Positions 1 through 38,140 of a DNA stretch of 64,000 bases are shown one piece after another. The stretch is from assembly GCA_964016885.1 (NCBI GenBank), contig OZ024750.1, positions 26,040,001-26,104,000 of the forward strand, read 5' to 3'. The notes under the pieces were generated by a model. The model was not told where the DNA came from, did not search any database, and saw only the letters and a program-made list of their open reading frames with translations. The stretch is from Eledone cirrhosa. Taxonomy: Eukaryota. Each line of letters opens with the position of its first letter. Positions within the stretch are counted from its first letter, which is position 1. Position numbers and translations under genes: made by a program.

Positions 1-1258
<1,258 letters not shown>

Positions 1259-1460
1259 GTATATATATATATATATATATAACGTAGGAGGTGTGGTACG
1301 GAATCAGATGGACCATAATGCACCAGATTACTCAATACTTGGGTAGTAGAGTGGGTAATAGGAAAATGTTTAATCCGTTTCGACGGCTGTTTCTGGACTC
1401 CAGAAATAGCCGTCGAAACGGCTTGAGCACTGCCGTCGGGGTTAAACATTTTCCTATATA

Positions 1461-1517
<57 letters not shown>

Positions 1518-1579
1518 GAAGAGAGAATGTGGGTAGGACAGAGAGAGAGTAAGAAATGTGTTAGTGTGTTTGCTACCCG

Positions 1580-1614
<35 letters not shown>

Positions 1615-1713
1615 CTCAAACAGGGGGCTGAATCACACGGCCCCGCAAACTACTTTTCTATGGCCCTTGGTAGAACCAATATTTCAGATTCCATTATAAC
1701 TGGTGAAAATAAG

Positions 1714-1930
1714 GCGGTGAGCTGGTGGAATCGTTAGCACATCTGGCGAAATACTTAGCGGTACTTCTTCCGTGTTAACGTTGTTAGTTCATATTCCGCC
1801 GATCTCAACTTTGCTTTTTATCCTTTTGGAGTCGATAATCTAAGTACCAGTTGTGAACTGGGATCGATGTAATCGACTGGACCGTAAACCCCAAATTTCC
1901 TGCCTTGTGTCTATAGTAGAAATAATTGTA
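1714..1930 (+). mobile_element. SINE (octopus-type); other copies about 21735-21950, 61395-61610, and minus strand about 4670-4840 and 6145-6335
   Basis: ggcggtgagctggtggaatcgttagc head, B-box-like gagttcaaattcc in the 21.8 kb copy, shared 3' part; five copies in window. Confidence 0.8.
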
Positions 1931-2556
1931 ACTGGTGAAAATCATCACCCACCACAACATTTGGCCCACTGTGCCTCTCCTCCAGGACGTAATGGCCGTT
2001 TTATGACCTTGAGTTTGAGAGTCCTCTTCTACACACACACACTCATATATATGCATCCACTTTACTTTTTTTCTGTCTCTGGACTACGCCCATGCTGTAG
2101 CATCACCTTGGTAAGTTATGGGGACGTCAACAAACCAACAAGCATTCGTGGGAGGGCAAACACAAACGCAAAGACAGACACAGGCATATATATATATATA
2201 CGACGAGCTTCTGTTAGTTTCGCTCTATCAAATCTTCCCACAGGGTTTGGTCGGCCCGGGCAGTGTGACTGAACCCGGAAACATGTGTATATCGTATTAA
2301 ATTAACAATGAAAATAAAAACAACAAAGTCAAGTAACTTTATAACTTCGTTGTTTTTAATTTGTTGTTTTTATTTTCATTGTTAATTTAATAAATAATAT
2401 CTGACTCTGTATCTAAAGAATTAACTCAGCGAAACACAGAACTTCACTATGGATTTTACGGGATTAGATTGAGTTTTATCTACGGTAGGGACCCTACTAC
2501 CAGAGGTAGACCACACTGAAGAGGAAAAAAAAATTATATATATATGTGTGTGTGTG

Positions 2557-2611
<55 letters not shown>

Positions 2612-2959
2612 TACATACATATGTACATACATTTACCTATGTGTATAACTATACATTTATATATTTGTATGTATGCATGCATTTATGTTTAAGTGTGTGT
2701 ATATGTGAGTTGATTTAAATAGTTTTGGGTAAGGAGAAAATTTTGACTCCAGATTTTATTACCTAGGGAGATTAACACAACAGTTGTTCCTCCTCATCAA
2801 ACACCAACGCCGGCCTGTATCTAGTATGCATGTGTATGTATGTATGTATGTATGTATGTATGTATGTATGTATGTATGTATGTATGTATGTATGTATGTA
2901 TGTATGTATGTATGTATGTATGTATGTATGCGTGTGTATGTTCGTATGTATGTATAAGT

Positions 2960-3360
2960 ATTTACCCAAAGCTTTCATCACCATTGCTTCTTATTCTTGC
3001 CATTTCTGTTGGTGTTGTTCTTGTAACTGTTGTCATAGTTGTGTAGCCCTTATTTTCATTTTGTTTGATTTCTTTCGTTTTCTTTTTCTTTTATCTCGCT
3101 AAGGAATTCGTTGACAATCTTCTTTCATTTACTTTCTTCATTTTCTTCATTCAAATGCATCCACACTGGCTGTCTCAGAGACGTACAAATATGGCTTATA
3201 AATTTACCAAATTAAAGAGCCTTCCAGCGCTCCAAAAGCTTCAAACGCCCCCTAACGACCCTTGCTCCCTAACGACCCCTTGCTCCCAAACGCCCCTCTA
3301 AGACCTCCGAATCGCCCCCGGGAGTTCATATGCCTCCCGTTGAGAACCTTTTGGTTTAGA
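2960..3360 (-). mobile_element. Non-autonomous hAT-like DNA element; related copies about 10172-10545 (+) and 62580-62975 (-), fragments at 18584 and 23575
   Basis: aaaggttctcaac terminus resembling hAT MITE ends; dispersed copies in both orientations. Confidence 0.5.
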
Positions 3361-5085
3361 CAGATAGCATATTAGATTGTAAAATAAAAATCATCGATTT
3401 GGCTGAATACCAAACAATTCCAATGGGGATGTAATTGTTTAAATCTAACGCAGGATAAACACATAATTTGAGCACAATTCAAGGACACATATTTTAGGGT
3501 GAGCTAGATGTAAATATATCAAGTCACTACTCATTGAAAGTTTGTCAGAGACGAAAGAATGGAAGTCAAGTTTCTACTGAATGAGATATAAACTGTGTAT
3601 GTGAAAGGATATATGTCATTACAACATGTCATTAAGAAAAGCGCGCTACCGCCTCTTCTAACCAAAACCTTTCGGAAATTAAATAATATCCTAATTATGT
3701 AGAAACCAAATGTAATATTTTATTATAGCTTTTCACTACTACATTAGTCCATCTCAAACCCCTCTGGAGATAATTTCCTGTTTAATAACTGTATAATTTA
3801 CTGGAGTTGGGGTTTACTAATTGTATCCCTTTTCTGTTGTTGTTTAGCGTGAGGCCAGTCATAACTAAGGACACCTATCATCAAGAACATTTCAGTCATC
3901 ACCATACTAACATTTAGGTGCCTTACGAACAACATTATTTGTTTTTGACTGCTTTCTTTAGCAGTTCGAGCGGCTATAAAGAAAGTGTCCTCCCCACAAG
4001 TAACTTTCTAACAAATAAATACGCAGAACCAATTAGATATACCCAGATCTCAGACATTTGTATCTGTCAGGTTTTGACTCATACAAGACACTCAAATACA
4101 TTTACCTCATGCATTATCCTTATTCAATAGATCATGTTATAGACATTATCTCAATAACTATATATTTCCCAAACCCAGTTAAAATAAAATTTAAAATATG
4201 GGATAACACTCAATCTGATGAAGTCTCAGCCAAGTAACATCAAATATATTATCCAGAAATTAAATTATAAAAGAATATTAACAATTTTTTAAACAGTTAC
4301 CAATTTGCACCAGCACTGATGCAAAGGCATATTGCGTAAGGCATATTGCCTATAAGAAATATGACTTACATGGCCACGATAATATAAACTGGCAAGACAT
4401 ATGTATTGAGAAACCGAACCGATTTGCAATACAAGACTGTTACTTATTCTATCGACTAATCAGTAGCGGTGAAAATCACATTCGTATCAGAACATAAATA
4501 AGTGAAAATAAATGACACAAGAACATATTTTATATTGGTTAAAATAATTATCTTACCTAGGTTAATTGTTTCAATTATATAAGAATGGACGAATTAGATT
4601 GTTCGATGAGAATATCTCTCTGGAAATTATTAATGATACGAGAATTTGTCTTCTGTTAGAAATAAATAATTGTTTCTACCTTTGGCACAAGGCCAGCAAT
4701 TACCTAGTGCATTACTGGTACTTTATTTTATCGACTCCGTAAGGATGAAAGGCAAAGTTAACCCCAGCGGGATTTGAACTCAGATCATAAAGGTCCGTAA
4801 CTCTTTGCTGCAAAGCATGGGGTCCGACCCTCTACCGATAATGTGTTATAAATATGACTGAATATGAGATTGTGATCAAGTCGTCATTCCCTCATCAATT
4901 ATTTTTATTTTGTTAAGTACAATGTTATTTAATAATTTTTAAATTTCCTTTTGCTGTAATAAAATTAATAATTAATTTGTAGTTTAAATGTAACATGTTT
5001 TTTTTTTTTGTCTTAATCTGAAAAACATAGTTCTCAACACTATATTCTAGTTCTCACTTTTACCACTCACTTGTTGAAAATATAG

Positions 5086-5515
5086 CTACTCTCGCAGGCA
5101 TAAACAGGACAAAAAAGCCTTAGGTAACGACAGCGGAAAAGCCAGTGGAAAAGACAGCGGAAAAGACAGTGGAAAAGACAGTGGAAAAGACAGTGGAAAA
5201 GTCAGCGGAAAAGACAGTGGAAAAGACAGTGGAAAAGACAGTGGAAAAGACAGTGGAAAAGACAGTGGAAAAGACAGCGGAAAAGACAGTGGAAAAGTCA
5301 GTGGAAAAGACAGTGGAAAAGACAGTGGAAAAGTCAGCGGAAAAGACAGTGGAAAAGACAGCGGAAAAGACAGTGGAAAAGTCAGCGGAAAAGACAGTGG
5401 AAAAGACAGTGGAAAAGACAGTGGAAAAGTCAGCGGAAAAGACAGTGGAAAAGACAGTGGAAAAGACAGCGGAAAAGACAGTGGAAAAGACAAAGGAAAA
5501 GACAAAGGAAAATAA
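5086..5515 (+). CDS. Probable last exon (cytoplasmic tail with about 30 DSGK repeats) of the upstream paralog of the EGF-repeat receptor
   Basis: Acceptor ...aaaatatag|C; joined to a phase-2 TM exon reads [23 protein letters not shown](DSGK/VSGK)n [11 protein letters not shown] at 5513-5515; AATAAA at about 5672; position is colinear with the region downstream of the TM exon in the duplicated copy. Confidence 0.6.
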
Positions 5516-5545
5516 AAAAGAAAAGACAAAGGAAAAGACAAAGGA
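5129..5545 (+). repeat. 12-bp minisatellite (GACAGYGGAAAA)n
   Basis: About 32 tandem units visible directly, with frame preserved. Confidence 0.95.
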
Positions 5546-5822
5546 AAAGAGAGCGGAAATAACAGAGGAGAAAAATCTGGAGAGATGGGAAATTAGACCA
5601 CATAAAAGATATTTCTAAAGATACGGGTGAGTTGGTTGTTTTATTAACTGTTGAATGTCTATACTTAGTTTAATAAAACTGTAATATTCTCGAAAACCAA
5701 AGAAATTTTATACATACATATATATAAAAAAGAGTCAGGACCCCGACGGCTGAGCTCCTGACGTTTCGACAGCTAAATCCGAACTAAGCCACCAGTATTA
5801 GAACGTGTCTGTGTGTGTGTGC

Positions 5823-5873
<51 letters not shown>

Positions 5874-6413
5874 CGTGTGTGTGTCTGCGTGTCTGTGTGT
5901 GTGCGTGTATGTTTATTTATACATTTATACAAACTAACACATTTAAAAATATTAATAAGAAAATATATGATCACGTGACAACCTGGTTGAGCTTGTTTTG
6001 TTTGGGAAGTCTGAATTTCATAATGGGTGCATTTCGATATATTGGGTCCTACATCTATCTACCACACACTGTTGACATGAAATATCCATCTGCACAGTCT
6101 TATAGCTCAGCTATATTTATATGTATCTATATCTCTTCAAATAATTGTTTCTACTTTTGGCACAAGGCCAGCAAATAACCAGTACACTACTGGTACTTTA
6201 TTTTATCGACCTCGTAAGGATGAAAGGCAAAGTTAACCTAGGCGGGATTTGAACTCAGATCATAAAGAGCCGTAACTCTTTGCTGCAAAGCATGGTATCC
6301 CACCATCTACTGATACTGCCAATCCACCGCCCTATATCTCTTCAAATAATAAATGCAACATATATAACTCGGTTTATCTATTTAGCTGCAGTTCATTTAT
6401 CCATTTTCTAACT

Positions 6414-6866
6414 ATCTATCTTTCCTTAAAAGGTCGAGCGGAGGTGGCGAACACTTACATAGCGAATTTCTGTTTTCCTCTGTATAGTGGCTATGGTAAA
6501 AGAGGTTATAAGGTGGACAAGATGGAGAGGGCTGAAGACAGATGCCTTTCACTCCGGACAACTCATTCCCTTCTTTAGGTACCACTTTAGAAGGAAAATC
6601 AGAGTGGAGAGAAAGGCACTGCACCCCAGTAAATTTACTGGAATGTGGGTGAATGTAGCAAAAGTGGCCCGAGAGATTGGGCCTTCTCTGTATATAAATC
6701 TGTAGGTTGAAGAAGAGAGCAAAAGAAAGAATGGAGCACTTGCACAACACGCTCGTGGAGTTGAGGGTTGTTCAATCTACGGGGTATAAAACAATCCATT
6801 TGTAGCCCCCCCCCCACCTCCTTGTATTGTCCCCTTTTCTTGTGCACCCTTGTGGCAAATAAAGAA

Positions 6867-6910
<44 letters not shown>
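6414..6910 (+). mobile_element. Truncated, internally deleted Tx1-clade LINE fragment with (ATCT)n tail
   Basis: LKGRAEVANTYIA joined to AMVKEVIRWTRWRG...LYINL*, 3' UTR, aataaagaaatctatct. Confidence 0.85.
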
Positions 6911-6912
<2 letters not shown>

Positions 6913-8188
6913 TGGAGATTTCGATTGTTGAAATTGTTTGTCGTGCCTTGTCCCCGTGAACACCTCGCCAAGATGGAACGCATGCCCTTCCAGTTTCTGT
7001 GGAAGAAGCAGGCTCCGCTGGTGAGGAGATCCGTCTGCTGTCAGCACCCTTCCAACGGAGGGCTGGGAATGCCGTGGCTGATGATGCGCAAACATGCGCT
7101 GAGGCTGCGGCATCTCCAGGTATTCCTCACCGACCCCCAACCGGTGTGGGCACCGTTTGTGAGACAGGCTTTCCCACAGCTCGTCTCGCTAACGGAGCTG
7201 CAGTCCTGGGTGAAGAAAAGACCGAAAACGATGGGCGCCAGGCACATTGAATGCGCTCAGGCGCTCACAGTCCTCTGGCAAGCGGGCGCAGCAATCAGTG
7301 GAGACTCCACTTCGACATTCTATAGAGGGATTGTAAGTTACAAGGGCGACGACGTGCTCGGAGAGACTCTGGGCGTCGAAGACGATGAGCTCACCAGTAT
7401 GTTTGGTAGGACTTTCCGCCCGGGACCTATGGACAACTTCCAGAGGTCCCTGGCCTGGCAGTGCTACCGAGGAGCTCTACCGGTTCGTGACAAGATCTAC
7501 AGGCACGGACGCCCTGGCAGGGATCCTTCCAAGAGGACGTGTCCAAGATGTGCGCAGGACATTGAAACAGTTCTGCACGCAATTGTACACTGCCCGGGCG
7601 TAAGCGACCTGTGGAACTATGCAGAACAACTGCTGTCGCGTATGGGACAAATCCAGTTGACTGCCGAGTCCATAGTAAGGATCAAACCGCCAGCCTCTTT
7701 CAAAAACGAAAGAGAGACGGTTTTCCTCTGTACGGTGGCTATGGTGAAAGAAGTTATATGGTGGACGAGGTTGAGAGGACTGAGGACAGATGCCCTTCTC
7801 TCCGGACAACAATTGATTCCATTCTTTAAGTATCACTTTAGAAGGAGAATCAGGGTGGAGAGAGAGGCACTGCACCCCAGTAAATTTACTGAAAGGTGGG
7901 TGAATGAAGCGAAAATGGCCCGAGTGATTGGGCCTTCTCTGTTTATAAGCCTGTAGTTTGAGGAAGAGAGCAAAAGGAAGAAAAAGCACTTGCACAACAC
8001 GCTCCTTGAGTTGAGGGTTGTTCTATCGACGGGGTATTAAACAACCCATTTGTGGCGCCTCCCCCCTATTGGGGATTTCGATTGTTGAAATTGTTTGTTT
8101 TTATATTTTTTACACGACTGTATGTAAAATCCCCGGCATGTCTTTGTATTGTCCCCTTTCTTGTTGCGCCCTTGTGGCTAATAAAGAA

Positions 8189-8244
<56 letters not shown>

Positions 8245-8245
8245 C
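6911..8245 (+). mobile_element. 5'-truncated Tx1-clade LINE (ORF2 C-terminal part, 3' UTR, (ATCT)n tail)
   Basis: ORF to 7956 homologous to the C-terminus of 55177-58614, including CPRC...HAIVHC zinc knuckle. Confidence 0.9.
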
Positions 8246-10589
8246 TTTACCTATCTATCTACCTATCTACCTATCTATCTATATGTCTGTCTTGTTAGTC
8301 CGTACGTCCTTCCCTCCATTCGTCCGTCCATCCTTCCCGGCTTTTTAGTGTATTGTTTATTGTCAATTACGTGCGTTGACGCTGTTAAATTAAATTTACG
8401 TAAATTCAAAAAAATTGCAAGGCACACAATGGACCGATTAATCTTATGTCCACTAATAAATGCCGAAATATCTTACATCTTTACTGTATTTTAAAAAGTA
8501 GGAAATATTGATCGATAGACTACAATAGGCACGCCTAGCTAAAACAACATTATTTTATAATCTTCTCTACGTACGCTCACTTCTCAATTTCATTTCCTTC
8601 TCTACATTTCTTTTGACTCTCACTTTTCCTCTTTCTTTTTTTCTGACCCATCACGCCTTTCTTAACATCACGCCCTCTCTTAGATTTTGAGTGACTACTT
8701 CATTGGTTGTCTTGCAAACGTGTAACTAACTACTTAGAATAAGCATGATATCTTCAGCTACATCTGTATATATCTGTTACTAAATCACATAAGAGAGACG
8801 AAATGTGAACTGTTATTAGTGAGATAAAATCTCTTGTGGTACTACCATTTTAAATAGTATAACTGTTTATACATTTTTGTGGGTTGCTCAGATGTCTAGC
8901 CACCCTATATAAAGACCCGAATGTTATTGAACATGATTGTTCATTTTTGGACAAAGGTTTCAGTGTGAGAATAACATGATAGCTTGCCGTGTTCGTTTCA
9001 GGATCATCTTCTAATTCCACTGACTTCATAGTTCCAATGACTTTCAAGGAGGGCAAAGATAAAATATCTCCCATTGGAATCTTTTAGCTAGACAAAGCAG
9101 AACTATAGAATGTACGTCAACTTTTGGAAGACTACATTTTCTATTAGGGCTTACTTTTGACTCATGTTTTCTTTTAATCATTACAGGTTTTCGATAAACG
9201 ACTACAGTTTTCCGGCTGGATGAGCTACAGATATCAAAGGAAGAGTTACTTGCAACTTTAATGTGTCGCATTTCTCTTTCTATGTTTATAATATTAATAA
9301 TTGAAACTATCAATATTTTAAATCCATTAAACAATAAAAAAAAGTTGAGGATCAGATTCTCACATTTTTTTTTTTTCCTTAAATGATTGTCAAAATCAAA
9401 GCGAAATTCCCACATGACACTCTCGTCTGAATTTCTTGTTTGATGTTCAAGTTGAACATCTGTAAATCATTGTTAAAAACATGAGCCGGGTATAAAACTA
9501 GGTGGGCATTGTTCTGGACAGGAGACATTATGGGGAAAGAACAATATTAAGAAGAAAAAATATGAGAGTTGGCTAGGATACGATGAATACGCATGAGGTG
9601 AAAAAGTTATGCAAATATCTAGAGCAGAACAACAGATCATTATACTAGTGATGTAAATAGAAAGAAGAATAACAGACGGCAAGTCTATGAATGTCCTTTC
9701 TGATTTGTTTAATAATGATTGTGTGTATCAGTAGCATTGTTGTGGAGATTTGAGCTGAAGTATAATGTGGCTTTAAGTTGAACCTAGTAGAGTGTTAGAA
9801 ATTGAGTGGGATTGATGTATTTTCTGGCTCTATATATGGAATTTAATGTGTGTGAAACAATTTATTCCTGTGTTATTTCTTAGGTTTCATCAGATGTTCC
9901 AATATTTGTATCAATGTTGAAAGTCTTAAGTGTATGTTAATCATAATTAGAGAGTACAAGGTACGACATTATGTAACAGATGTATGTAGTGACAGAATTG
10001 TTTTTTTTGGGGGAGAACGTTATCCTCTTCATATTGACAGATGTTCCCAAAACCATGGATTCACTTTATGTTGGTGTTGGGTACAAGTGACACATGTATG
10101 TGACAATCTAAGCAGAAGTAAAGTGTAGCAAATTTTGAGTTGCATTGTGCCTCATTAGAGGCAATAACAATGTAGAGCAAAGGTTCTCAACGGGGGGCAT
10201 ATGACCCCGGGGGCGTTTCGTAGCTCCAGGGGGGGGGGGGCGTTTTGGAGCAAGGGGCGTGGGGAGAGGTGTATGAAGATTTGGGGGCGCTAGGCTATTT
10301 ACTTAGGTAGATTTTATAAGCCATATTTTTACGGCTCTGAGACAGCCAATCAGAATGCATTTGAATAAAGAAAACTAAGAAAATAAATAAAAGAAGCTTG
10401 TCAACCAATTCCCGAGGGAGATAAATGAAAAACGAAAGAAATCAAAGAAAATGAATATAAGGACAACGACAACTTTTACAACAGTTACAAGAACAACAGA
10501 ATCGACAAGAAAAAGAAGCAATGGTGATGAAAGGTTTGGGTGTATACATATACATACATAGAATCATACAAACACATGCATACATACAT

Positions 10590-11183
10590 CGTTTTCGAGT
10601 ACGGCCACTACTTTATATCCATGTAGAAGAACCCCTAGCGATGCGCTGAACAAGTGTGACTTTTTAGACCAGCCGGCGACTTGAAAACTCTGGTACAAAC
10701 ACTACATCTGTGACATTTATTGACACATATTGCTGGGCCCATGGTGCCATGTGGCGACAAGGGCAGAGATATCTCTAGATATAAAGCAATGCCTGTGCCG
10801 TGAAGCCTTTATAGTGAGCAAAGGCACTGCACAAAGCCAGTCCCACTCTCTTAACCATGATGATATTTACCAAAAAGAAGAACAAGTCAACATCATTGGA
10901 TACCATCAGGGTTGCAGGTGTTATATCAGAGTTTTCCTTCTCCTAGAATTCTGCCTTGACAAAGGCTAAGGGGTCATCTCTCCCAGTGATTTTGGATGGC
11001 CATTGACTCTTAAGAGCTCCGTTGCCCTTTGACAGGTTTTGTTTTTAGTCCTGCAGGATGTCCAAAGTCACCCTCCTCACCAAGAAACCTTGGTGGGGTT
11101 GCCAGTTTAGTCGCCAACGACCCGACCATGAGACAGGCTGTACTGGAATACATGTTACCAGTAGCACGAACTGGTGACCTGAC
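10590..11183 (-). mobile_element. Short non-autonomous RTE-derived-like element (5' head fused to 3' zinc-finger end); second copy about 22599-23170 (+)
   Basis: Two oppositely oriented similar copies flanked by (CATA)n; 3' end encodes CSVCTRVF..AGLKSH...HR. Confidence 0.6.
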
Positions 11184-11885
11184 ATACATACATACATACA
11201 TACATACATACATACATACATACATACATACATACATACATACATACATACATACATACATACATACATACATACATACATACATACGATGGCGACCGTT
11301 GTGGTCAGTGTCTGATAATCGGACGTGTGTAATTACGGCTTACATGAAGGCAACATACTATATATTGGAAAAAGTTGAGCTACATTACGCGGTAAGATTA
11401 CATACAATAATTCTACATAAGTGTTTGAACTGTAAGTGTGTTGTAAAACACCTATTTATATGAACGATACATACACTTTAACATATAAATGCAACGTTGT
11501 TATATTACATTTATAAAGAAATATACAAGTAACGTTTTCGATTCAGAAACAAAACATAGGTGTTTGAAATGTGAATATGTTGTGAATAAGTTGTAGAACA
11601 CCTATTTATATGAATGATACATAAACATTAACATATAAATACAGCGTTGTTATATTATATTACATTCATAAAGAAATATACTAAGTAACGGTTCTTTTTG
11701 TTCTCGATTCAAGAACAACGTTTAAAACACAGTTGTAGAATTAAAAACTAACTGAAAAGAAATATTACCCAAGCTGTGAAAATCTTTAAATTTGATTCTG
11801 ATAGAACTTTGTCGAAACTTTTAAAGAAGATCATCGACTATTTTGAAAAATAAATACGAAATATTAGTGAATAGACGAACTCATC

Positions 11886-14230
11886 ATGGTAAAATGTACA
11901 AGTCTCCTTCGACCAAATCGCAACTACAACCGTTGTATACAGTGAAGGCACGAGCTTAACCAAGAATTATATGAAGCATACAAACAATCTGAACCCCAAA
12001 AGTTCGGTTTTATGCAAAGGCTAAAAACTTTGTGGAACTCCAAACACCCAGAATTAGACTTTTCTCCAAAGCATTTAAATGAACAGGCAAAACGTATCAT
12101 TAGATGTAAATTGATACATCTAACGGAATTGAGTGATACTACAAATACAGCCCTTGCAGACAACCACCCCACCTCCACTGACAGACAAAGAGAATGGCCA
12201 GCTAAATCTAACAGTGAACAGCTCACCAACAATTTTGCTGAAATCCATCCCACTTCCACTGAAGAACAGCGAGAAAGGTCAGCTAACTCTAGTAGTAATT
12301 GTCACCACATCAACAACGAGGCTGAAATTCATGACTCTACTGTACAAACAGAAGACCAAAAACTAGTGGACACCTTACAAGTGAAATGGGACGATATGTT
12401 TCAAGAGATACACAGCGTTAATGTGAGTGACAGACCATACAAGACCAGAACCAGTAAAGAACCCACTAAATTGGAATTGGAAGCGGTGAACGAAATAGCT
12501 GGCAATTATCTGAAGGTTATACGATCTAAAGGTGTAGAAACGACATTTGAAACGCTTAATATTTTGTTATGTTTCAGCTGTCACATTGCTATCATATAAC
12601 ACACATCTAAAACTACGTAATCAAGATACAAACAAAAAGCCTGAACCAGCGTGCATGCGAAATTTAAAAAGCAAAATTTTGTCCCTAAGACGAAGTATCT
12701 CACACATCGCAGTCGTTATGAAATGCAACATAGAGAGCAACTTCACACGACACCAGGAAGACCTAAAAAAAAAGTTAGAGAGACGATTTGGAGATACAAA
12801 ATTTAAAACTTTGAACTCCAAATTACACCAGTTGAAACAACAACTCACAGCTACAACAGAAAGACTAAAATATAAGTCAACAGCACATAAACGACAAGTA
12901 CTAAATAGATTGTTTGCCAGAGATCCTAAATCAGTTTATCGCAGCTTCGGTGGCAAAAGCGCAATCCCTGTAAATGACACCCCTTCAAAAGAACAGGTTG
13001 AGAGCTACTGGAGATCTGTATGGGAAACGGATGACGGATTCAACCGACAAACTAATTGGCTAAAAGAACTGGAACAGGACTACTGCCAACATGTCCAGAC
13101 AAAACAATATGACATAGATGGGTCAATACTGGAAACAGCTCTACAGAAAATGTCGAATAGGAAATCACCAGGCCGAGACCTCATTACAGGATACTGGTTG
13201 AAGAATTTCACTTTCTATCGGCAAGATCTCATACGGCTGTTTACAGAAACCATTAAAGGCACACAAGAACTGCCCAGATGATTATCAACTGCCACTACTC
13301 TCCTCATTCCCCAAAATAGCCAAACCACCCTTGCTAAAAATTACCGCCCAATAGCCTGCCAAAACATCATGTATAAATTATATACTGGGTGCCTTAACCT
13401 GTTCTTACAGGATCACTGTGATACCAACAACATCATAACACCTGAGCAAGCTGGTAGAAAGAGGGAGGTGTGGGGTTGCATAGATCACCTACTAACTAAT
13501 AAAATGATTCAGGAAAAAACAACAAAGAATCGCAGAAACATGACTGTGGTGTGGCTGGACTATCAAAAAGCATTTGATAGTGTACCTCATGGGTGGATTA
13601 TTAAGGCTTTACAGTTAGCCAAAGTCCCACAAACATTGGTAGCTGCTGTTGAACGCATGACCAAGAACTGGTACACCGATTTGATCCTTAGAGGTGAGAA
13701 GGAGCAAGTTAAGACTGATAAGATACATTACCAGAAGGGCATCTTTCAGGGTGATAGCTTGTCAGTGCTACTCTTCGTTCTCTCACTAAATCCACTATCT
13801 TACCTACTCAGAAAACAAGGTGGACAAAGAAGTGGGTCCAGAAGTATCTCCCATCTTTTCTTTGTTGATTACCTGAAGTTGTATGGGCCAAATACCAATG
13901 ACACCAAGAAACAATTGGACCTCATTACACAATTTTAAACACAGGAGTTTACAAATCCAGTATCCAAGATACACCTTTACCTTCATACCCATCATTATTG
14001 GAGCTACGGGTTATATACTAACCCGCTTGAACCAAAGTATGACTGAACTTGGATTTGCGGACAAAGAGCGCAGCTCCCTCATTTATAGTCTACAAATGGA
14101 TGCGATAGCCGGTACCTTCAACATTTTCAAAACATTCTTGCGATTCAAGGGATGGCAATTTCTTTTCTTTTACAACCTTGCCACCAGTCAACGCAATCAG
14201 TCGCATATTTTGGCGTGGGAGGCTATTTAT
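11886..14230 (+). pseudogene. Degraded R4/Dong-like non-LTR retrotransposon ORF (RT with remnant restriction-like endonuclease end)
   Basis: KSPGRD, NYRPIACQNIMYKLYTG, WLDYQKAFDSVPH, GIFQGDSLS, SHLFFVDY (mutated catalytic DD), FIPIIIGATG; frameshifts, stops and an internal deletion. Confidence 0.85.
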
Positions 14231-14396
14231 TAAATTTAAGATGAATACTATCTCCGACAGTAATGCCACAACTACAGTCATGTTGAATAATTGGTTATTC
14301 TTCTAACTATATCTTCTGAAGACACCTTTTATTCGAATTCGTATAGATATCCGGATAATTACATAATTCATTTTACAAGGATTTGCTACAAACAGC

Positions 14397-15377
14397 ATGG
14401 CTGAACACAACATCAACAAAAAAATTAAGGAAGTACCGAAGACAAATAACAAGGAAGGTAAACAAACTTTATTCAGTTGTAGCTACAGAAGAAACCTAAA
14501 TTATAAATCGCATTTCTCTTGGAGTTGCGAACTTAATAATGATTTATTTAATTGTTATAAAATGTCAAAAACCAATCCCTCCATTGGCTATATGAACAGA
14601 ATGAAGCTACACTGGGACGAAATACACCCAGAGCTAAATTATTTCCCAGCGAAACAATTACGCCAACAAGCGACGTTTGTTGAACGTAAAAATAAGATAA
14701 ATATTATTAATTGTAAGTCCCCCACAACAAACATGTTATCAACAGCACGTGCTACAGGTCGCCATGCTACTAGACTTCCTAGCAGCCAGGTCGAACAGCG
14801 CCTTGAAACAACTATGCCTGTAAGAAACTTGACACCACCTGTACCATCTAAGTCTACCTCGAATGGTGGGGAAAACACCATCGATAATAATAATAATCGA
14901 AGAAATAATAATAATAATCGAAGAAATTTGACACCACGTGTACCATCCGAGTCTACCTCGACTGTTGTGGAAAATACTATCGATAATGATAATAATCAAA
15001 AGTATAAACAATTGAAATATTCCCTCAACGAAATCTTCCAGTGAGAAATTAATTCATGTATAAATATCTCTCTTGCTGAACGTATTAAAACGACAATGTT
15101 TCATAAAAAAACAAATAATGAAATATTACGTGTTGACGAAATAGGGGATGAATATTTACGACGGATAAAAACCCCAACATTTTGGCAAATCAACGCCTGT
15201 TTATATGCCTTAGCAACGACAGTGAAGCATTATCAAACACACAGCATTATCAAACACACAAAAAACCTCATTCCTCACCAACAAAGAGTGAAAAATAAAA
15301 TAGAGACGATGTTTGGTAACAGTAGAACCAGAACTCTCCAATATAAGCTGATCACCATTAAACAAGAATTGAAGTGA
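14397..15377 (+). pseudogene. N-terminal fragment of a second R4/Dong-like element
   Basis: ELNNDLFNCYKMSKTNPSIGYMNRMKLHWDEIHPEL parallels ELNQELYEAYKQSEPQKFGFMQRLKTLWNSKHPEL near 11950-12050. Confidence 0.7.
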
Positions 15378-16485
15378 GGCCAGCATCAAGCGTTTTCGAT
15401 ACCGCGTAAATACTAAACTAATCATGGGTGATGTCTCGGCCGCAGTCAGAGTGGTTGCCTCAGAGGACACTGTACTGCAATGCATCGAGGAGGTCATGGC
15501 TGCCCTGCGACTCAAGCTCCCTGAGCCACCTGTTGACCTACCCCCACTCGATCCCCAGCTGCTCCTTGTGGCTTCCATGTCTCATCAAGTCCTTCCCAGC
15601 TAGCAGCAGCGGAGGTGCTGATGGGCTCCGACCTGGCCACCTCAAGGAGTTGCTCTCCCCTCTCTCCGCTGAGGTCGGCGGCCGCCTTCTGTGTGCATTT
15701 GTGTCACCAATAGGCGCCCTGGATGCTCACGCCTGAGGTTTCTTTTTTTCGGCTTGCCTGACCGCTCTCAGGAAGAAAGAGGGTTGCATACGCCCCATCG
15801 CTGTGGGTAATTTCTTCCGGAGGTTGGCTGCTAAGGTGGTCTCCAGGTCCATAACACCTGAACTGGATGAGGAGTTCAGTCCGGTGCATCAGGGTGTCGC
15901 CGTGTTCGTGGATGTGAGAGGGCGCACATGCAACCAGGCAGTCTTCAACCGGAACCGGCATCCAGGGACTCCAGGCACCTCATTGTCAAGCTTGACAAGA
16001 GGGACCATCTGCTTGATGCCTGTCTCAGCCGAACCCTCTCCGGCTACCCGCTGGCCTACCTGTCATATGGATCCCCGAGCATGCTCCTTGCTGCTGATAC
16101 GTTATCTTCGGCCACTGGGGCCTACAGGGTGACCCTTTGATCCCCCTCCTGTTTGCGCTTGGTATAAACCACATTGCCCGTAGTATCACGGCCCCTCTCA
16201 ATGTTTGGTACCTGGATGATGCTACCCTCGAAGAGCCCGTGGAGACTGTCTGCCACGACCTTCAATCGGTCTCCAGGTCAACTCGCCCTCCGACAAAAGA
16301 AACTTCGGTGTCCTTGGCTCTAGTGCTACCTCTCTATTCACCACCATAGGCGGTATGTGCCTCTCGAGTTGGAATGGCTCTTCCAGCACATCTGCGTTAC
16401 CATCCTCCAGGGAAACGCCTTCTCCATTTTGTCCGTCGGGTCTGTGGAGGGCCAGCACTTGGGACCTCATTTGCTCACCATACGG
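15378..16485 (+). pseudogene. Degraded CRE-clade-like retrotransposon RT fragment
   Basis: SFPASSSGGADGLRPGHLK, IRPIAVGNFFRRLAAK, QGDPL, WYLDD, C-terminal ICVTILQGNA; abrupt GC increase. Confidence 0.75.
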
Positions 16486-16758
16486 ATTAAGACATATAAC
16501 CTCTCTTTTTCTTTTATTTACTCTTTTTCAATTAAGGGGTTAGTCTTACATAATACTGAAGTAAAAAAAAACGAAAGCAAATTATATAGTGAAATAGAAC
16601 ATGTGTAATCTACTGAAGTTTAGCACAAAGAGTGCACACGTCGTCTCGAGACACTGAACGCTAACGATAATTCCGTTAGCATCGTCGTGAAGAACGCCAC
16701 TAAGACAAAATTTTCGGAGTTTTCCTCACTTTCGATTTATAATTTAACCCGGCTTGCA

Positions 16759-16822
16759 ATGTCCTCCCTTTCTATTGCTGGATTTATTATATTATTAACA
16801 TGGCAGGTCACTTTAGCAGCTG
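16759..16822 (+). CDS. Exon 1 (signal peptide) of EGF-repeat type I membrane receptor
   Basis: gcaATG; MSSLSIAGFIILLTWQVTLAA; strong phase-1 donor G|gtaaga matching the phase-1 EGF exons. Confidence 0.75.
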
Positions 16823-20094: not shown

Positions 20095-21640
20095 CTAGAA
20101 TTTACTGAAAGGTGGGTGAATGAAGTGAATATGGCCCGAGTGATTGGGCCTTCTCTGTTTATAAGCCTGTAGGTTAAAGAAGAGAACAAAAGGAAGAAAG
20201 GAGGACTTGCAGAATACGCTCCTGGAGTAGAGGGTTGTTCTATCGACGGGTATTAAACAACCCATTTGTGGCGCCTCCCCCCCTATTGGGGATTTCGATT
20301 GTTGTAATTATTTGTTTTATATTTTTTACACGACTGTATGTAAAATCCCCGGTATGTTTTTGTATTGTCCCCTTTTCTTGTGCGCCCTTGTGGCAAATAT
20401 AGAAATCTATCTATCTATCTATCTGTGGAAGAAGCAGGCTCCGCTGGTGAGGACATCCGCCTGCTGTCAGCACCCTTCCAACGGAGGCTGGGAATGCCGC
20501 GGCTGATGATGCGCAAACATGCTCAGAGGCTGCGGCATCTCCAGGTATTCCTCACCGACCCCCAACCGGTGTGGGCACCATTTGTGAGCAGGCTTTCCCA
20601 CAGCTCGTCTCGCTGACGAAGCTGCAGTCCTGGGTGAAGAAAAGACCGAAAACGATGGGCGCCTGGCACATTAAATGCGCTCAGGCGCTCACAGTCCTCT
20701 GGCAAGCGGGCGCAGCAATCAGTGGCGACACCACTTCGACATTCTATAGAGGGATTGTACGTTACAAGGGCGACGGCGTGCTCGGAGAGACTCTGGGCGT
20801 CGAAGAAGATGAGCTCGCCAGTCTGTTTGGTAGGACTTTCCGCCCGTGACCTATGGACAACGTCCAGAGGTCCCTGGCCTGGCAGTGCTACCGAGGAGGT
20901 CTACTGGTTCCTGACAAGTCCTACAGGTACGGACGCCCCGGCAGGGATCCTTCCAAGAGGACGTGTCCAAGATGCGCACAGGACATTGAAACAGTCCTGC
21001 ACGCAATTGTACACTGCCCGAGCCCAACCGACCTGTGGAACTATGCAGAACAACTGCTGTCGCGTATGGGACAAATCCAGTTGACTGCCGAGTCCATAGT
21101 ATGGATCAAACCGCCAGCCTCTTTCAAAAACGAAAGAGAGACGGTTTTCCTCTGTACGGTGACTATGGTCAAAGAAGTTATATGGTGGACGAGGTTGAGA
21201 GGACTCAGGACAGATGCCTTTCTCTCCGGACAACAATTGATTCCGTTCTTTAAGTATCACTTTAGAAGGAGAATCAGGGTGGAGAGAGAGGCACTGCACC
21301 ACAGTCATTTTACTGAAAGGTGGGTGAATGAAGCGAAAATGGCCCGAGTGATTGGGCCTTCTCTGTTTATAAGCCTGTAGGTTGAAGAAGAGAGCAAAAG
21401 GAAGAAAGGAGAACTTGCACAACACGCTACTGGAGTTGAGGGTTGTTCTATCGACGGGGTATTAAATAACCCATTTGTGGCCCCTCGCCCTTATTGGGGA
21501 TTTCGATTGTTGTAATTGTTTGTTTTTATATTTTTTACACGACTGTATGTAAAATCCCGGGCATGTCTTTGTATTGTCCCCTTTTCTTGTGCGCCCTTGT
21601 GGCTAATAAAAAAAAATCTATCTATCTATCTGTCTATCTC
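20095..21640 (+). mobile_element. Two stacked 5'-truncated Tx1 copies (20095-20424 and 20425-21640) in (ATCT)n
   Basis: ORF2 C-terminal homology with frameshift and stop; 3' UTRs with ATCT tails. Confidence 0.9.
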
Positions 21641-25971: not shown

Positions 25972-26123
25972 CCGCTTTTCTCCTGGAACACCGCTATCTC
26001 TTTCTCTCTATCTCGTGTGTGTGGGTGTGTGGTGTGTGCAGGTGTGTGTGTGCTGGTGTGTGCGTTCATGTGTGTGTGTGTGTAAATATGATGTTTAATA
26101 TAGACATTTTATATATATTTCAG

Positions 26124-26258
26124 AATGCGCAATAGGAAGATTTGGATTTAATTGTAGAAAGACATGCCATTGTATCGACAACAAAAACTGTGACAATCGA
26201 AATGGAAGTTGTTCAGATGGATGTACTGCAGGTTATGTTGGTGACAATTGCCAAGAAG
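26124..26258 (+). CDS. EGF-repeat exon 1 (MEGF10/SCARF-type, 8 Cys)
   Basis: tttcag|...|gtatat, 135 nt, phase 1-1: ECAIGRFGFNCRKTCHCIDNKNCDNRNGSCSDGCTAGYVGDNCQE. Confidence 0.9.
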
Positions 26259-26448
26259 GTATATCATAAACTTGTTACATAATTACTATAATTCCTATAT
26301 ACACACACACACAGATATATATGTTTATGTGTGTGTGTGTGTGTGCGTGTTTGTGTGTGTGAGTTGGGGGGTGGGGGTGAATCTGCATGTGTGTGTATGT
26401 GTGTGTGTAAATATGATGTTTAATATAGAAATCTTATATATATTTCAG

Positions 26449-26604
26449 AATGCCTGATAGGACAGTTTGGTATTGATTGTAAAGGGGTATGCCATTGTAT
26501 CTACGTCTTTAACTGCGACTACCGTTCTGGAATATGTACAGATGGATGTACTGCAGGTTATGTTGGTTATCCTTCAAGTTATGTTGGTTACATTTGCCAA
26601 GAAG
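26449..26604 (+). CDS. EGF-repeat exon 2 (21-nt in-frame insertion)
   Basis: 156 nt, AG/GT: ECLIGQFGIDCKGVCHCIYVFNCDYRSGICTDGCTAGYVGYPSSYVGYICQE. Confidence 0.85.
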
Positions 26605-27140
26605 GTATATCATAAACTTGTTACGTATTTACTATAATTACTACACACACACACACACACACACTCACACTCACACAATACACACACATACACACACATA
26701 CACACACACACGCACACACTCACATACTCACACACTTTCACACATATATATATATATATGTGTTTCCGTGTGTATGTGTGTGTTTATGTGTGTGTGCATG
26801 TATTTGTGTGTGTGTGCATGAGTTTGTGTGTGTGTGCATGTGTTTGTGTGCATGTGTTTAATATAGAAATCGCTTCTACAGGACTACTTTTGAATGAAAT
26901 AGTTCTAATAGTTCTAAATGTATATATATATATATATATATTTCAATTTAGTAGTCAGTTACAAATATCAAGCTCTAAGAAAATATTTCTGAGCATTACA
27001 TTATAATTTAAAAAAATATATGATCAACACTACTGTGTTTTTTTTTTTTGAAAAAAAAAAAAAAAAAAAAATTATTGTCATTTTGCAAAAAAAAAAACAC
27101 AGTAGTGTTGATCTTATATTTTTTAAAATTATATATATAT

Positions 27141-28370
27141 ATATAGTAGAATAATCGAGTATCGAAAAATCGGCGCACGAGTTCACGATAAACAAAATTC
27201 GATATGAGCGGAAGAGGGCTCAATAATTCAGATAAATCAGAGCTATAACTATCGTTAAAATACCGTCACACACAGAACAAGTCTATAATCAACCGTACGA
27301 CCGAAAGATTGCGATATGGAAGTTTCGGGACATTCAGAAAAAAAAATCCAAAAATCAATAAATCAAATGAATGTAAAAAGCATAACCGGACCCGCTAGAA
27401 AGATGGTAAATCTAGCTTCTTGGGTTTCTGTAAATCCTTAAACTGCCCTCTATCAGCTCACATAAAAATATATGAGACTTCTAGAAGCCAGCGGACAGGA
27501 AAATTTACTTCCTCAACGAGCCTTTGTCCGAACGAATGAAAAGGCATAACCCAGGCTGAAGGAACGCACGTGTAATTCAGCAAGGGAGATAACCTCTACA
27601 TCCGCAAAAAATATTCGGGAAAATGTGGAAATACACATATCGAATAAGAGTGCTCAATAGACATGTTAAAATAAACAGGAGCTATTCATCATTTAATAGA
27701 ATCGACAAAAAATGAACAATAAAATTAACTGGTCAATAGCTAGGTCTAGTGCTAAATATAGTAGAATAATCGAGTATCGAAAAATCGGCGCACGAGTTCA
27801 CGATGAAAAAAAATTCGATATGAGCGGCAGATGGCTCAATAATTCAGATAAATCAGAGCTATAACTATCGTTAAAATACCGTCACACACAGAACAAGTCT
27901 ATAATCAACCGTACGACCGAAAGATTGCGATCTGGAAGATTCGGGACATTCAGAAAAAAAAAATCCAAAAATCAATAAATCAAATGAATGTAAAAAGCAT
28001 AACCGGACCCGCTAGAAAGATGGTAAATCTAGCTTCTTGGGTTTCTGTAAATCCTTAAACTGCCCTCTATCAGCTCACATAAAAATATATGAGACTTCTA
28101 GAAGCCAGCGGACAGGAAAATTTACTTCCTCAACGAGCCTTTGTCCGAACGAATGAAAAGGCATAACCCAGACTGAAGGAACGCACGTGTAATTCAGCAA
28201 GGGAGATAACCTCTACATCCGCAAAAAATATTCGGGAAAACGTGGAAATACACATATCGAATAAGAGTGCTCAATAGACATGTTAAAATAAACAGGAGCT
28301 ATTCATCATTTAATAGAATCGACAAAAATTGAACAATAAAATTAACTGGTCAATAGCTAGGTCTAGAGCT
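27141..28370. repeat. Head-to-tail dimer of an unclassified 615-bp unit between (TA)n
   Basis: atatagtagaataatcgag at 27141 and 27756; units nearly identical. Confidence 0.9.
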
Positions 28371-28446
28371 ATATATATATATATATATATATAAGGAACC
28401 AGATGGACCATATCGCACCAAAGTACTCAATACTTAGGGTAGTATG

Positions 28447-32602: not shown

Positions 32603-32697
32603 TTTTATATCAGTTATAAAATATTTACTCGTTAAATAAAACTTTTGCATATATTTTGCTCCAATACCGTTGAGCGCTTTATATTATAACTGAAAAA

Positions 32698-34927
32698 ATG
32701 GAATTCTTTAAGATCTCTTCTTCTCTAAAAGACATACCTCTACCTAGAAACAAGGACTTTATTAAACAACTAATAGATAAATCAGACTCCTTTATAAGGA
32801 GAATCAGGTGGCGTGCATTCCACTTTGATAAATCTAAATCTAACGTAAACGAAAATGTCTCAGACCTAGACAGAGTCTTCAAATCTAAAAAAAATCCACC
32901 CCCCAACAAACTTTTGAATGATTTTGAAAACGATATTATTTCTATCATACAAGGAGTCAGATTCAAGAGAAACTTCAATGGCCAGGAATATCTGAAAGGC
33001 ATTAGGGATAACATTGCGAGCTTAGAGAGAAAAGAGAAGATCTTGGTGAAATCGGACAAAACCAACAACCTCTATGGAGTGGAAAAAGACATGTATAATG
33101 GCCTCATACTGAAAGAACTAAGGAAAAAGTACAAGGTAGCAGATAAGGCTGAACTTGAGAAAATGAATGTTGAGGCATCATGTATAATGCATGAGTTGGA
33201 AATTGAGAACAAAACACAACCTTTCGTGCCTAGGAAACCCAAGATCAATATGAAAGATCACAAGAGAAATTTTGAAAATGACTTGCCAGTCAGGTTGATT
33301 GCACTATCAAAATCTGACCTGGGTAAACTTAGCAAGAACATTCTAGACAGAGTGATACAGCAAATTAAGGACTTGAATTGTTTACCTGGCTTGACCTTGT
33401 GGAAGGGAACTGGGGAGGTCATTGAGTGGTTTAATGAAATTAAATATAACAATAATAATAAATTTATTCAACTAGATATTGCTAACTACTATTCATCCAT
33501 TACCCCTAATCTACTTAATAAGGCACTAAATTACGCATTCAAGCATACAGACCTAACTAGCAATGAAATGCACATTATATTATCGGCAAGGAAAACTTTG
33601 ATAGAATTTAATAACCAACTATGGACTAGGGCAGATAGAGATAATAATTTTGACATTACTATGGGATCATCAGACTCAGCTCAGGTAACGGACCTTGTGG
33701 GCCTATTTATAATTAATTCGCTGCATAGGAAAATACCCGGTGTTACCGGTGGTTTATATAGAGATGACATGCTTTTACTTATTGAAAATAATAACTCTGA
33801 ACTAAATAAGAAAAGAAAATAAATTATACAATTTTTTAATTACCTTAATCTTAAAATAGAAATTGAGAATAACCATAGAATAGTCAATTTCCTAGACGTA
33901 ACATTTAATCTCAACACATGTCTTCACTATCCATTTCACAAGTTAAATGAAAACTTGAATTATGTCAATTTTAGCTCCAATCACCCCAGATCTGTCAAAA
34001 ATACTATAGTGAACTCTGTTCAAAAACGTATCTCTAGAATCTCTTCCAATAAAAATATTTTTGACGAAAAAGCCCAGTATTATAATGAAGCTTTAGCTAG
34101 AGCAGGATATAGTGATAAAATTATGTACATCGATAATAGACAAACTAACCAAAATAACAACAATCTTAATTACAGTAACAACTTTAACAACTATAATAGA
34201 AAGCACTACAATAATTTCAAAAACCAGAAAAGAAATAGAACTAGAAATATAATATGGTTTGCCCCCCCCCCCTTTCTCACTAAACATTAAAACCCACATC
34301 GCTAAACTATTTTTTAATGCTCTTGACAAACGCTTCCCTAGAACACATAAGTATCACTCAATTTTTAATAGACATACTATAAAATTAACGTACTCGTCCA
34401 CCAAAAATTTAGCACAAAATATTAATAGAATAAATAATAGGAATCTAAAACCTAGCCAAAATACCGAAAATAGCCTAAACAATATTCAACTAAAAAACTG
34501 TAACTGTAGAGATAGATCTAAATGTCCGCTAAATAACAATTGCTTAGTTAAAAATATAATATACAACTGTAATGTTAGAACTGATTTAAATTCTTTTAAT
34601 TATGTTGGTTCCACCTCGACAGAATTTAAACTTCGCTATAATAATCACAAAAATTCTTTCACGGATCCAAATAAAAAATCCTCAACATCGCTGTCAGGGT
34701 TACTCTGTCAACTTAAGCATGATAAAGTTGGCTATTCGATGGTTTGGAATATAGTCTCAAAAGGGATTCCTTTTAATTCCTCTTCTGAGACATGTGACCT
34801 CTGCGCGGAGGAGATATTCTTTATACTAAAATCTAAAAATTCCCTTAATTTACGAACCAATTTATTCAGTTGTTGCAGACATAGATTGAACTCAACATTT
34901 AAATATAAATATAAATTTAAAATGTAG
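32698..34927 (+). pseudogene. Nearly intact Penelope-like (possibly Naiad-like) RT + GIY-YIG ORF with one TAA and one frameshift
   Basis: LDIANYYSSI, MGSSDSAQVTDLVG, GLYRDD, NFLDV, CNCRDRSKCPL, IYNC...YVG, RYNNH, CDLC, CRH; in-frame TAA at 33820-33822; frameshift at poly-C 34262-34272. Confidence 0.9.
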
Positions 34928-36159
34928 TATAAAATGTAGTATATTTACTTAAGGTATTTGACTATTTATGAAACTTGGCGATAAATCTTTCGATTCCTTC
35001 AATTTTTAAAACCTTTCTGCATGAATATATAATTAATGAGATTAAATAAACTACCCTAAAATTGGCGTTGTTCCCAATCTTTTGAATAAATTTTTTAAGC
35101 TTGATAAACTTCTATAATAAATATAAGAGCATTTGTAGAATAAGTTTTGAATGATTTCTGCTAAATAAGGCTTGGTGAACAATTTTGGTTTGTTTGCTTT
35201 TGATTCTGATTCTATGTGACCGATATGCGTGGCATACTATGTTCTCTTGCGTCCCTAGATACTCTGTGGAGTGACGAAGATATTCTTGGCGTTTTTAATT
35301 TTAATTTTAATATTGATATCTGTTGTCTACTCTATGCTTGATCGATGATCATGCAAGTGAGGCTGAAATGTTATTTTAGATGTTAATGTAAATCTTATAT
35401 ATTTTATGTCTATATATATGTATATATGTATGTAAATGTATGTAGGGTGGAATCTTTTGTAACGCATTGAAGTTTTTCATGAAATATAAGAATATGTGCA
35501 GCGTATCACGTAGGTTCACATGTGCGTCTATATTTATCAACTTGAATTTGAGATAACCTTCTCTTTTCTCTTTTTTTTTTCACGAGAATGCATATATACT
35601 TATGTTTGAAGTTTTATCTCAAATTTTGCTTATAGACCTAAGAATTTTTAAACTGAGCATGTGGTCATTTTTTCACACTTTATGGATATGTGTCTCATTC
35701 ATGAATACTGATATTTACATTATAACACCTAATTCATAAAAATTGATAATTCAAATGGATGAGACATAATATATTTTTAATATATTTTAAATATATCATC
35801 TTTCTTTCTTTTTCTCCTTTACACTAGTTTAACTGTATCCCTTCCCTTAACCTCTCACATATACGATGATCATCTGTCCAAAGGCAGCCTACTATATATA
35901 TTTTTTCACCTCCTCAATGTATTTCTCTCTATCATATCTCCTTGTCTCTCTATCTCGCTCCGTTGTTTTTCTTTACATACATCTCTTCATCTTCTTCTTT
36001 TTTATTTACATACATCTCTTCATCTTCTTCTTCTCATCTTCGTTTTTCTTTCTATATAACTGTCATAACAGTTTCACTACCAAATCAACTTTTTAAATGG
36101 AAGTTGCATTATTACAAGGTATGTCACTAATTATTTATAAAACAGCTTATGTATTGTAT

Positions 36160-36380: not shown

Positions 36381-36444
<64 letters not shown>

Positions 36445-36571
36445 ATATTATATATATAGGATAACAGTTTATCGAATATTAATAACATTCGATTCGCTTG
36501 CAATTATGCAAACAATACTCAATTTTATAGCCATGACAGTAGAATGAAGACTTCAAACTTGCTCCTGTGTT

Positions 36572-36614
36572 AGCAGACACTAATGTTTCTGGGTATCACC
36601 CTTCATCAGTGCAG
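36572..36614 (-). ncRNA. HHR, antisense, before EGF pair 2
   Basis: gca-CTGATGA-agggt-gat-accc-a-GAAA-cattagtg-TC-tgc. Confidence 0.75.
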
Positions 36615-37021
36615 TCTACTGTTCTTCTACAAAACCGTCAGAGCCAGTGAAAATATATACTATTTTCAAAAATACAGAGTGACTCATTGGCCTCATTTGC
36701 ATATCAGTAGACTGGCCAGTCAGTTTCCTGTATACGAGTGATAAATGGCCGACTTTGCCAAATTTAAATAAAAGAGACAATTTATATATACAAATATATA
36801 CACAACAAAGCCTGCAGCTCCATTCTCCTTCGCTGTCTCCTCTCCCTTTCTCTATGTCCCTCTTTCAATCTACTCTCTTACAACCACTATCTCTCTCTCT
36901 CTATCTTTCACTCTCTGTCGTGTGTGTTGGTGTGTGGTGGGTGCAGGTGTGTGCGTGCATGTGTGTGTATGTGTGTGTGTGAAATATGATGTTTAATATA
37001 GAAATCTTATATATATTTCAG

Positions 37022-37156
37022 AATGCCGAATAGGAAAGTTTGGTGTTGATTGTAAAGAGACATGCCATTGTATCAACAACACAAACTGTGACCATCGAAA
37101 TGGAAGTTGTTCAGATGGATGTACTGCAGGTCATACTGGTGACAATTGCCAAGAAA
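37022..37156 (+). CDS. EGF-repeat exon 3
   Basis: 135 nt, AG/GT: ECRIGKFGVDCKETCHCINNTNCDHRNGSCSDGCTAGHTGDNCQE. Confidence 0.9.
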
Positions 37157-37316
37157 GTATATCATAAACTTGTTACATAATTACAATAATTACTATATAC
37201 ACACACACATATATATGTGTATGTGTGTGTGTGGGGGGGGGGGTACAGGTGTGTATGTGCATGTGTTTGTGTGTGTAAATATGATGTTTAATATAGAAAT
37301 CTTATATATATTTCAG

Positions 37317-37451
37317 ATTGCCCAGTAGGATGGTTTGGTGTTAATTGTAAAGGGACATGCCATTGTAACGACAATATTAACTGTGACATCCTTAATGGAA
37401 GTTGTTCAGATGGATGTACTACAGGTTATGTTGGTGACAATTGCCAAGAAG
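37317..37451 (+). CDS. EGF-repeat exon 4
   Basis: 135 nt, AG/GT: CPVGWFGVNCKGTCHCNDNINCDILNGSCSDGCTTGYVGDNCQE. Confidence 0.9.
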
Positions 37452-38066
37452 GTATCTCATAAACTTGTTACGTATTTGCTACACACACACACACACACAT
37501 ACACACACACATACACACACACATACACCCACACACACACACACACTCACTTCAATCTAGATTCTCACTTGTACATTTTTGAATTTTTAATTTTTGATTC
37601 CTGACTTTTGATTTTTAATTTTTAGTTTTAATTTCCAACTCTCATTCATAATTTCCACTGTGAAACCATAATACCTAGAATTAAGTATATTTTCTCTTAG
37701 AGGTTGATGGTCAATTCTACTGTCCATCCTTAATGTAGGGTAGTATTGAGACCTATTGATACTCACACTCTCCCAACCCCACTAGCTTTCGGCTGACTGC
37801 CACTGACCGGGTGGCTAACAGTAAACCATATATTACAGGCCTGAATAGGTCAGTGTTTGTTTGAGAGGGGGAACTGCCTAGGCGAATTTCGTTGAATTCT
37901 GTGGTAGCTGATGGTCAATCCTTCGGACCTGCGCCTGCGCAGACCGGTGGGGGTGAATTGGTACTCACAAGGGAAACGGACGAAGAACCCTAGAACACAC
38001 ACTTCGTCCGTTCCCATGTCGATTCAATTTGGATGGCCTCGGAAACATAACCTTATTATGCAACAA

Positions 38067-38140
38067 GCTGTCTGACGATGTCGCGGCACTGGCGCACGGA
38101 ATAGTCTGTCCACTGTCACCATTGAAATATGTATCACAGC
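38067..38140 (+). ncRNA. HHR in a roughly 0.7-kb intronic insert (about 37555-38260)
   Basis: gctgt-CTGACGA-long stem II-GAAA-tatgta-TC-acagc. Confidence 0.7.

Follow-up and report, generated by a model that had tools for sequence, protein, structure and literature searches.

The most plausible reading of this locus, to which we assign a probability of about 0.5, is that a young 12-bp minisatellite lies, in all likelihood, in the final coding exon of an EGF-repeat surface receptor gene that is tandemly duplicated and apparently devoid of a phosphatase, and that it would encode a cytoplasmic tail of about 30 xSGK units, predicted to be disordered and probably without any repeat-specific signalling. 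The window, i.e., the whole stretch of 64,000 nucleotides that was analysed, is animal DNA of 39% G+C which contains many microsatellites and retroelements. Two copies of a predicted EGF-repeat surface receptor gene lie in tandem in this 64-kb window, copy 1 being only partly within it.

The gene model of copy 2, on the + strand, runs from a signal-peptide exon through eight EGF-like exons to a transmembrane (TM) exon. The first coding exon (16759-16822, +, phase 1) is signal-peptide-like, with 21 hydrophobic codons and a good donor. The EGF-like exons, all on the + strand and all phase 1-1, are found at 26124-26258, 26449-26604, 37022-37156, and 37317-37451 (exons 1-4) and at 38956-39090, 39268-39402, 47487-47621, and 47801-47935 (exons 5-8); they measure 135 bases in all but one case (156), and the Pfam EGF matches of the single exons are all below the cut-off. 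The TM exon (50357-50447, +) enters in phase 1, leaves in phase 2, and reaches a 19-residue mean hydropathy of 3.24. The nearest relatives of the EGF exons are Octopus sinensis proteins with 61-68% identity, two of which are receptor phosphatases that contain both an F5/8 and a PTP domain; the copy 2 TM aligns with the TM of two of these proteins, P0001 and P0008. A tblastn search with 11 relatives found no PTP or F5/8 exon in the window, the matches being to EGF exons only, and the receptor seems from these comparisons to have lost its phosphatase.

Some further features of copy 2 concern its exon history. The EGF exons are paired inside duplicated blocks of 1-2 kb with 77-85% identity (26000-26900, 36400-39700, and 47100-48300), and this pairing is an internal exon-pair duplication. 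The second EGF exon (26449-26604) contains an in-frame internal duplication of 21 bases. The eighth (47801-47935) has GG in place of GT at its donor and has lost cysteines; it is likely skipped in splicing. At 36070-36125, a strong donor (36118) follows an ATG and seven phase-1 codons, and this segment is possibly an alternative first exon that would encode no signal peptide; it may equally be a product of chance.

The link between the array and the receptor comes from paralogy. Positions 1-1185 of the window are 97% identical to 52884-54070, and the copy-1 intron (1580-4383, +) is 96% identical to 61263-64000. The initial annotation had attached the array to a TM exon by this route, and the link holds, as the copy 2 TM exon ends in phase 2 and its downstream intron matches at 96-97%. 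By this identity, the DNA upstream of 5086 is the predicted post-TM intron of the upstream gene copy, and the receptor-tail reading is sound because the post-TM intron of copy 2 matches the DNA that precedes 5086. The TM exon of copy 1 and the tail exon of copy 2 both fall outside the window, so that the TM of copy 1 is known by paralogy only; on the evidence of the paralogous intron, it would splice to 5086. A hydrophobic frame at about 2950-3080 was considered as the TM exon and rejected, since it is part of an element repeated at 10179-10589.

Several mobile elements can be recognized in the window. A LINE cluster of about 6.8 kb is present in the copy 2 intron and absent from the copy 1 intron. 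An open LINE frame of 1153 codons with endonuclease, RT, and zf-RVT domains is found at 55153-58614, and 3′ fragments of related LINEs occur at 6430-8230, 20099-21640, and 58940-61260. Disrupted elements of the LINE type, in which remnants of RT or endonuclease are left, are located at 44077-46148 (-), 11946-14233, and 15422-16540. The elements at 1-884, 52000-53767, and 32674-34927 presumably resemble the Penelope-like RT/GIY-YIG type; a Pfam search at E≤0.001 gave no match in these three candidates, and the first two are paralogous copies of each other. An interspersed repeat at 4664-4843 is taken by us to be a SINE and, together with the O. sinensis relatives of the EGF exons, points to an octopus as the probable source of the gene. 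A 615-base head-to-tail duplication with 98% identity is present at 27138-28377.

The array itself (5129-5559, +) consists of 35.9 copies of a 12-bp unit with 90% matches and 0% indels according to TRF; it is real and above chance. Among the 23 TRF rows with a period of 9-60 and at least 3 copies, it is the only one that is long, purine-rich, and free of indels, with a period divisible by 3, and not a dinucleotide run; its first unit begins 43 bases into the exon. It was earlier described as about 30 (D/V/A)SGK repeats followed by a TAA, and this description proved correct: the units before the stop comprise 30 xSGK (24 DSGK, 5 VSGK, and 1 ASGK) and 2 DKGK, and the TAA of the DSGK frame lies within unit 33 (5513-5515, +). 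S, G, and K are invariant across units 1-30, a point that could be raised in favor of a function, and the V units of the second half recur every 3-4 units. The commonest unit variant, found in 9 units, is synonymous in the DSGK frame only; among the unit variant types before the stop, one of four is synonymous, a proportion that shows no selection. The array continues for 3-4 units beyond the TAA, followed by a degenerate period-12 continuation (5560-5596, +), and past the TAA the DSGK frame stays open for 27 further codons, up to a TAG at 5594-5596. The AATAAA that had been placed after the TAA was retained in part: the one at 5511 overlaps the stop, and a usable candidate polyadenylation signal is present at 5672-5677 (+), a motif with a chance of about 32% of occurring in 200 bases of local intron.

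Openness alone picks no frame, because the array is open in all three + frames, i.e., DSGK, VEKT, and RQWK. Its reading is instead derived from the exon start. The intron end and 3′ splice acceptor (5040-5085, +) have their AG at 5084-5085, and a further acceptor in the same frame is found at 5098; when entered from a phase-2 donor, exons starting at 5086 or at 5098 are both read in the DSGK frame. The pyrimidine content before 5086 is 11/20, against 12/20 at the EGF and TM acceptors of the gene. The unique exon start (5086-5128, +) encodes a basic juxtamembrane stretch of 14 residues ahead of the xSGK units. The initial annotation had read RRHKQDKK from this phase-2 acceptor, and both the AG and the basic stretch are confirmed and support an exon start. 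Indeed, 127 YAG acceptors can be read in phase 2 within 1-16758, and only six of them are followed by 12 codons of which at least 4 encode basic residues; of these six, all but 5086 lie inside LINEs or other repeats. KQDKK can be aligned with the KRDQK/KRDEK that follows the TM of O. sinensis relatives; the alignment is weak (score 18), with a nearly equal distance from the TM. Use of the VEKT frame had been named beforehand as a finding that would overturn the reading. When this was checked, the VEKT-frame acceptors (5051 and 5108) were found to hit a stop ahead of the array, and the frame was rejected; the RQWK frame was likewise rejected as a reading of the array. The predicted tail from 5086 to the TAA has 143 residues.

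Whether the array is exonic throughout depends on a donor-like site with an exon end at 5123, five bases ahead of the array, and a GT at 5124-5125 (5121-5129, +), a site that the initial annotation had overlooked. An exon that reads through the array is somewhat favored, and it would run, on the signals described, from 5086 to the AATAAA at 5672. The best of the alternatives, although unlikely overall, is that a juxtamembrane exon of 38 bases (5086-5123), entered in phase 2 and left in phase 1, is joined to an exon further downstream, that the array is intronic, and that DSGK is read only on retention or never. The 5123 donor reaches 2.0 bits, which is on a par with the 2.2 bits of the commonest EGF donor of the gene, and a donor this good has a chance of about 8-9% of arising in 43 bases; however, the underlying matrix is a general metazoan one and not octopus-specific. 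Other repeats in the introns of the gene begin 30-75 bases from exon ends, which suits an intronic array, as does the fact that the array runs on past the stop at 5513. Its period, its purine content, and its lack of indels nevertheless look coding. Read-through is further favored by the commonest unit variant and, weakly, by the AATAAA at 5672, whereas the stop within the array and the low share of synonymous variant types count against it. Downstream phase-1 acceptors with short frames do exist, and, should the 38-base exon be the one in use, those at 9002 and 10041 could open the last exon. Against this, no downstream match to the juxtamembrane region of the relatives rises above the shuffled control (best scores of 39-40, against a median of 36-38 for the null), and an ITIM-like motif such as the SLYVGV downstream of 10041 is expected by chance (4/57 frames). 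If used, the 5123 donor might conceivably lead to common cytoplasmic exons outside the window, an arrangement known from clustered protocadherins.

A less probable alternative, and a distinctly doubtful one, is that copy 1 is silent or decaying, as a pseudogene or a duplicated fragment, and that the frame is untranslated. The contigs compared over 3400-5170 bear on this point, X1, X2, and X4 covering intron DNA. The acceptor region occurs in three versions in contigs of one DNA sample (X1 and X2), with 2 differences over 4958-5170, 10 over 4969-5170, and 12 plus 7 gaps over 4964-5097, and two of the three extend into the array; since three versions exceed two alleles, paralogs of the acceptor region exist. 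The region is also partly present in a second organism, in contigs X5 whose cover includes the acceptor but not 5140-5170, a gap to which no weight can be given. This recurrence speaks against a silent fragment, whereas in the second version both of the exon differences among those listed alter residues, as might be expected of decay. Copy 2 has one broken EGF donor and many retroelement insertions, and copy 1 is visible in the window only in part; on the other hand, the other nine modelled exons of copy 2 preserve frame and phase.

Searches with the tail gave matches that are compositional only. Atlas matches were at 0.82 or lower, exact-pattern scans of metagenome contigs returned 0 matches, and a Pfam candidate, Yae1_N, was rejected as it fell below the cut-off with no stretch of the tail assigned. 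EGF repeats combined with a DSGK tail were found in 0 of the best 150 of 1175 matches at E≤0.001 and in 0/74 of a second set. At least 3 DSGxxS are contained in 22 of the 74 tail matches, among which are an HflX of bacterial origin, a protein from a myxobacterium, and the largemouth bass protein P0178. The DSGxxS text thus arises repeatedly where beta-TrCP cannot act, being found in bacterial and extracellular arrays. No literature on the tail of this EGF-receptor family or on tandem DSGxxS arrays was found in the sources covered, which include few subscription journals.

These matches weigh on the functional proposal of the initial annotation, a signalling or turnover ladder. Spelled out, CK2 would prime the last serine, GSK3 would relay phosphorylation toward the membrane, and 23 DSGxxS would recruit beta-TrCP, with repeat number tuning turnover. 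The motif text is literally there, with 24 SxxD, 29 SxxxS, and 23 DSGxxS, and the exact DSGKDS, said to satisfy all three motifs in most units, is present 17 times in 30 units. The serine spacing, which is that of a GSK3 relay, is unbroken over 30 units, and three residues after the final serine there is a D. Units with DSG are also rare beforehand, corresponding to 80 of 160,000 tetrapeptides and, when one frame is read, to 0.03-0.04% of random 12-mers. However, all 80 of these 80 DSG tetrapeptides satisfy the three motifs when placed in tandem, so that the three motifs amount to a single match, recognized in hindsight and multiplied 30 times, and every serine-bearing tetrapeptide unit (29,679/160,000) satisfies SxxxS.

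The kinase context is unfavorable as well. The 24 CK2 matches have the acid at +3 but not the acidic context free of basic residues: K occurs at +2 and -2 of every serine, and the net charge of the tail is +12. Basic residues are described as detrimental to CK2 sites and nearly absent from them (PMC5832243), and a DSGxxS motif that CK2 can phosphorylate stands in an acidic context (PMC5574712). According to PMC13097077, beta-TrCP needs phosphorylation of the degron and tolerates a fourth residue that is basic, as in PDCD4 (Ki 6 nM), as well as a fifth that is acidic, as in IkB-alpha; because of the former tolerance, binding of beta-TrCP to the tail is still conceivable. The 23 DSGxxS matches are not accompanied by conservation, since DSGxxS follows the TM in 0/11 TM-bearing relatives (0/17 in all, direct orthologs not being among them). 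Like arrays are present in bacteria and extracellularly, as seen above, and this one is known from DNA alone, its translation being only predicted. The degron look is, from the pattern of the units, most likely a by-product of repetition, and the ladder was not upheld. In its fullest form, it would mean that the phosphatase was swapped for a ladder of 23 overlapping degrons with in-register lysines, whose repeat number sets surface half-life per paralog or allele; this would be a natural multivalent degron that grows stronger or weaker with the number of repeats, and it would allow a clean study of the relation between degron valency and receptor turnover, but we consider both the ladder and this extension of it very improbable.

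For the preferred reading, that of a repeat-built tail without repeat-specific signalling, the following course may be proposed. Slippage or unequal crossing-over would have amplified one unit and then blocks of about four units. The array, once translated, would give a cytoplasmic tail that is predicted to be disordered and may be tolerated as filler; AlphaFold on the single tail sequence gave a mean pLDDT of 52.7 and no secondary structure, a weak sign of disorder. The 32 serines and 37 lysines of the tail might undergo incidental phosphorylation or ubiquitination. No match to NPxY, YxxPhi, or ITIM/ITAM was found in the 143-residue tail. Because the tail is without YxxPhi, NPxY, and ITIM, the receptor would function in binding or adhesion, or as a decoy, and not via tyrosine motifs or a phosphatase. 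If so, it would be a small case of a tandem receptor family that loses a catalytic tail and gains a repeat-built one, useful for the annotation of cephalopod EGF-repeat clusters.

Among known systems, the closest are the EGF-repeat receptor tyrosine phosphatases of O. sinensis (P0001, i.e., XP_036365020.1; P0008, named MEGF6-like; and P0009, named draper). They share with the present gene EGF-like repeats of 43-45 residues, a similar TM, and a short basic juxtamembrane stretch; the homologous tandem repeats are found in the exons of copy 2, and a single TM after the repeats in copy 2 and, by paralogy, in copy 1. Unlike it, they have an F5/8 domain, P0001 and P0008 also have PTP, and none has a DSGxxS tail. 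MEGF10, Draper, and CED-1, whose names are those of the molluscan database matches, are scavenger receptors and likewise single-pass proteins with tandem EGF-like repeats. They carry an N-terminal EMI domain and cytoplasmic NPxY/YxxPhi/ITAM motifs, whereas the DSGK tail is without NPxY, YxxPhi, or ITIM. On inspection, no exon resembling EMI was noticed at the N-terminus of the gene model. Among receptors, beta-TrCP degrons are found in IFNAR1 and the growth-hormone receptor. With the degrons of IkB-alpha, claspin, PDCD4, and beta-catenin (PMC13097077), the tail has in common the DSGxxS text and a predicted cytosolic disordered region; the known degrons are, however, single and kinase-gated, whereas here the copies are in tandem, unconserved, and known from sequence only. 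A parallel to the array itself, among tails and linkers built from coding minisatellites, is offered by the largemouth bass Ig receptor P0178, a single-pass receptor with a period-4 DSGK/DSGE array and 10 DSGxxS. Its array lies between the signal peptide and the Ig domains and TM, and is thus extracellular, and the resemblance is convergent, with no homology. Ser-Gly in an acidic context, as in the array of P0178, may serve as a glycosaminoglycan attachment site.
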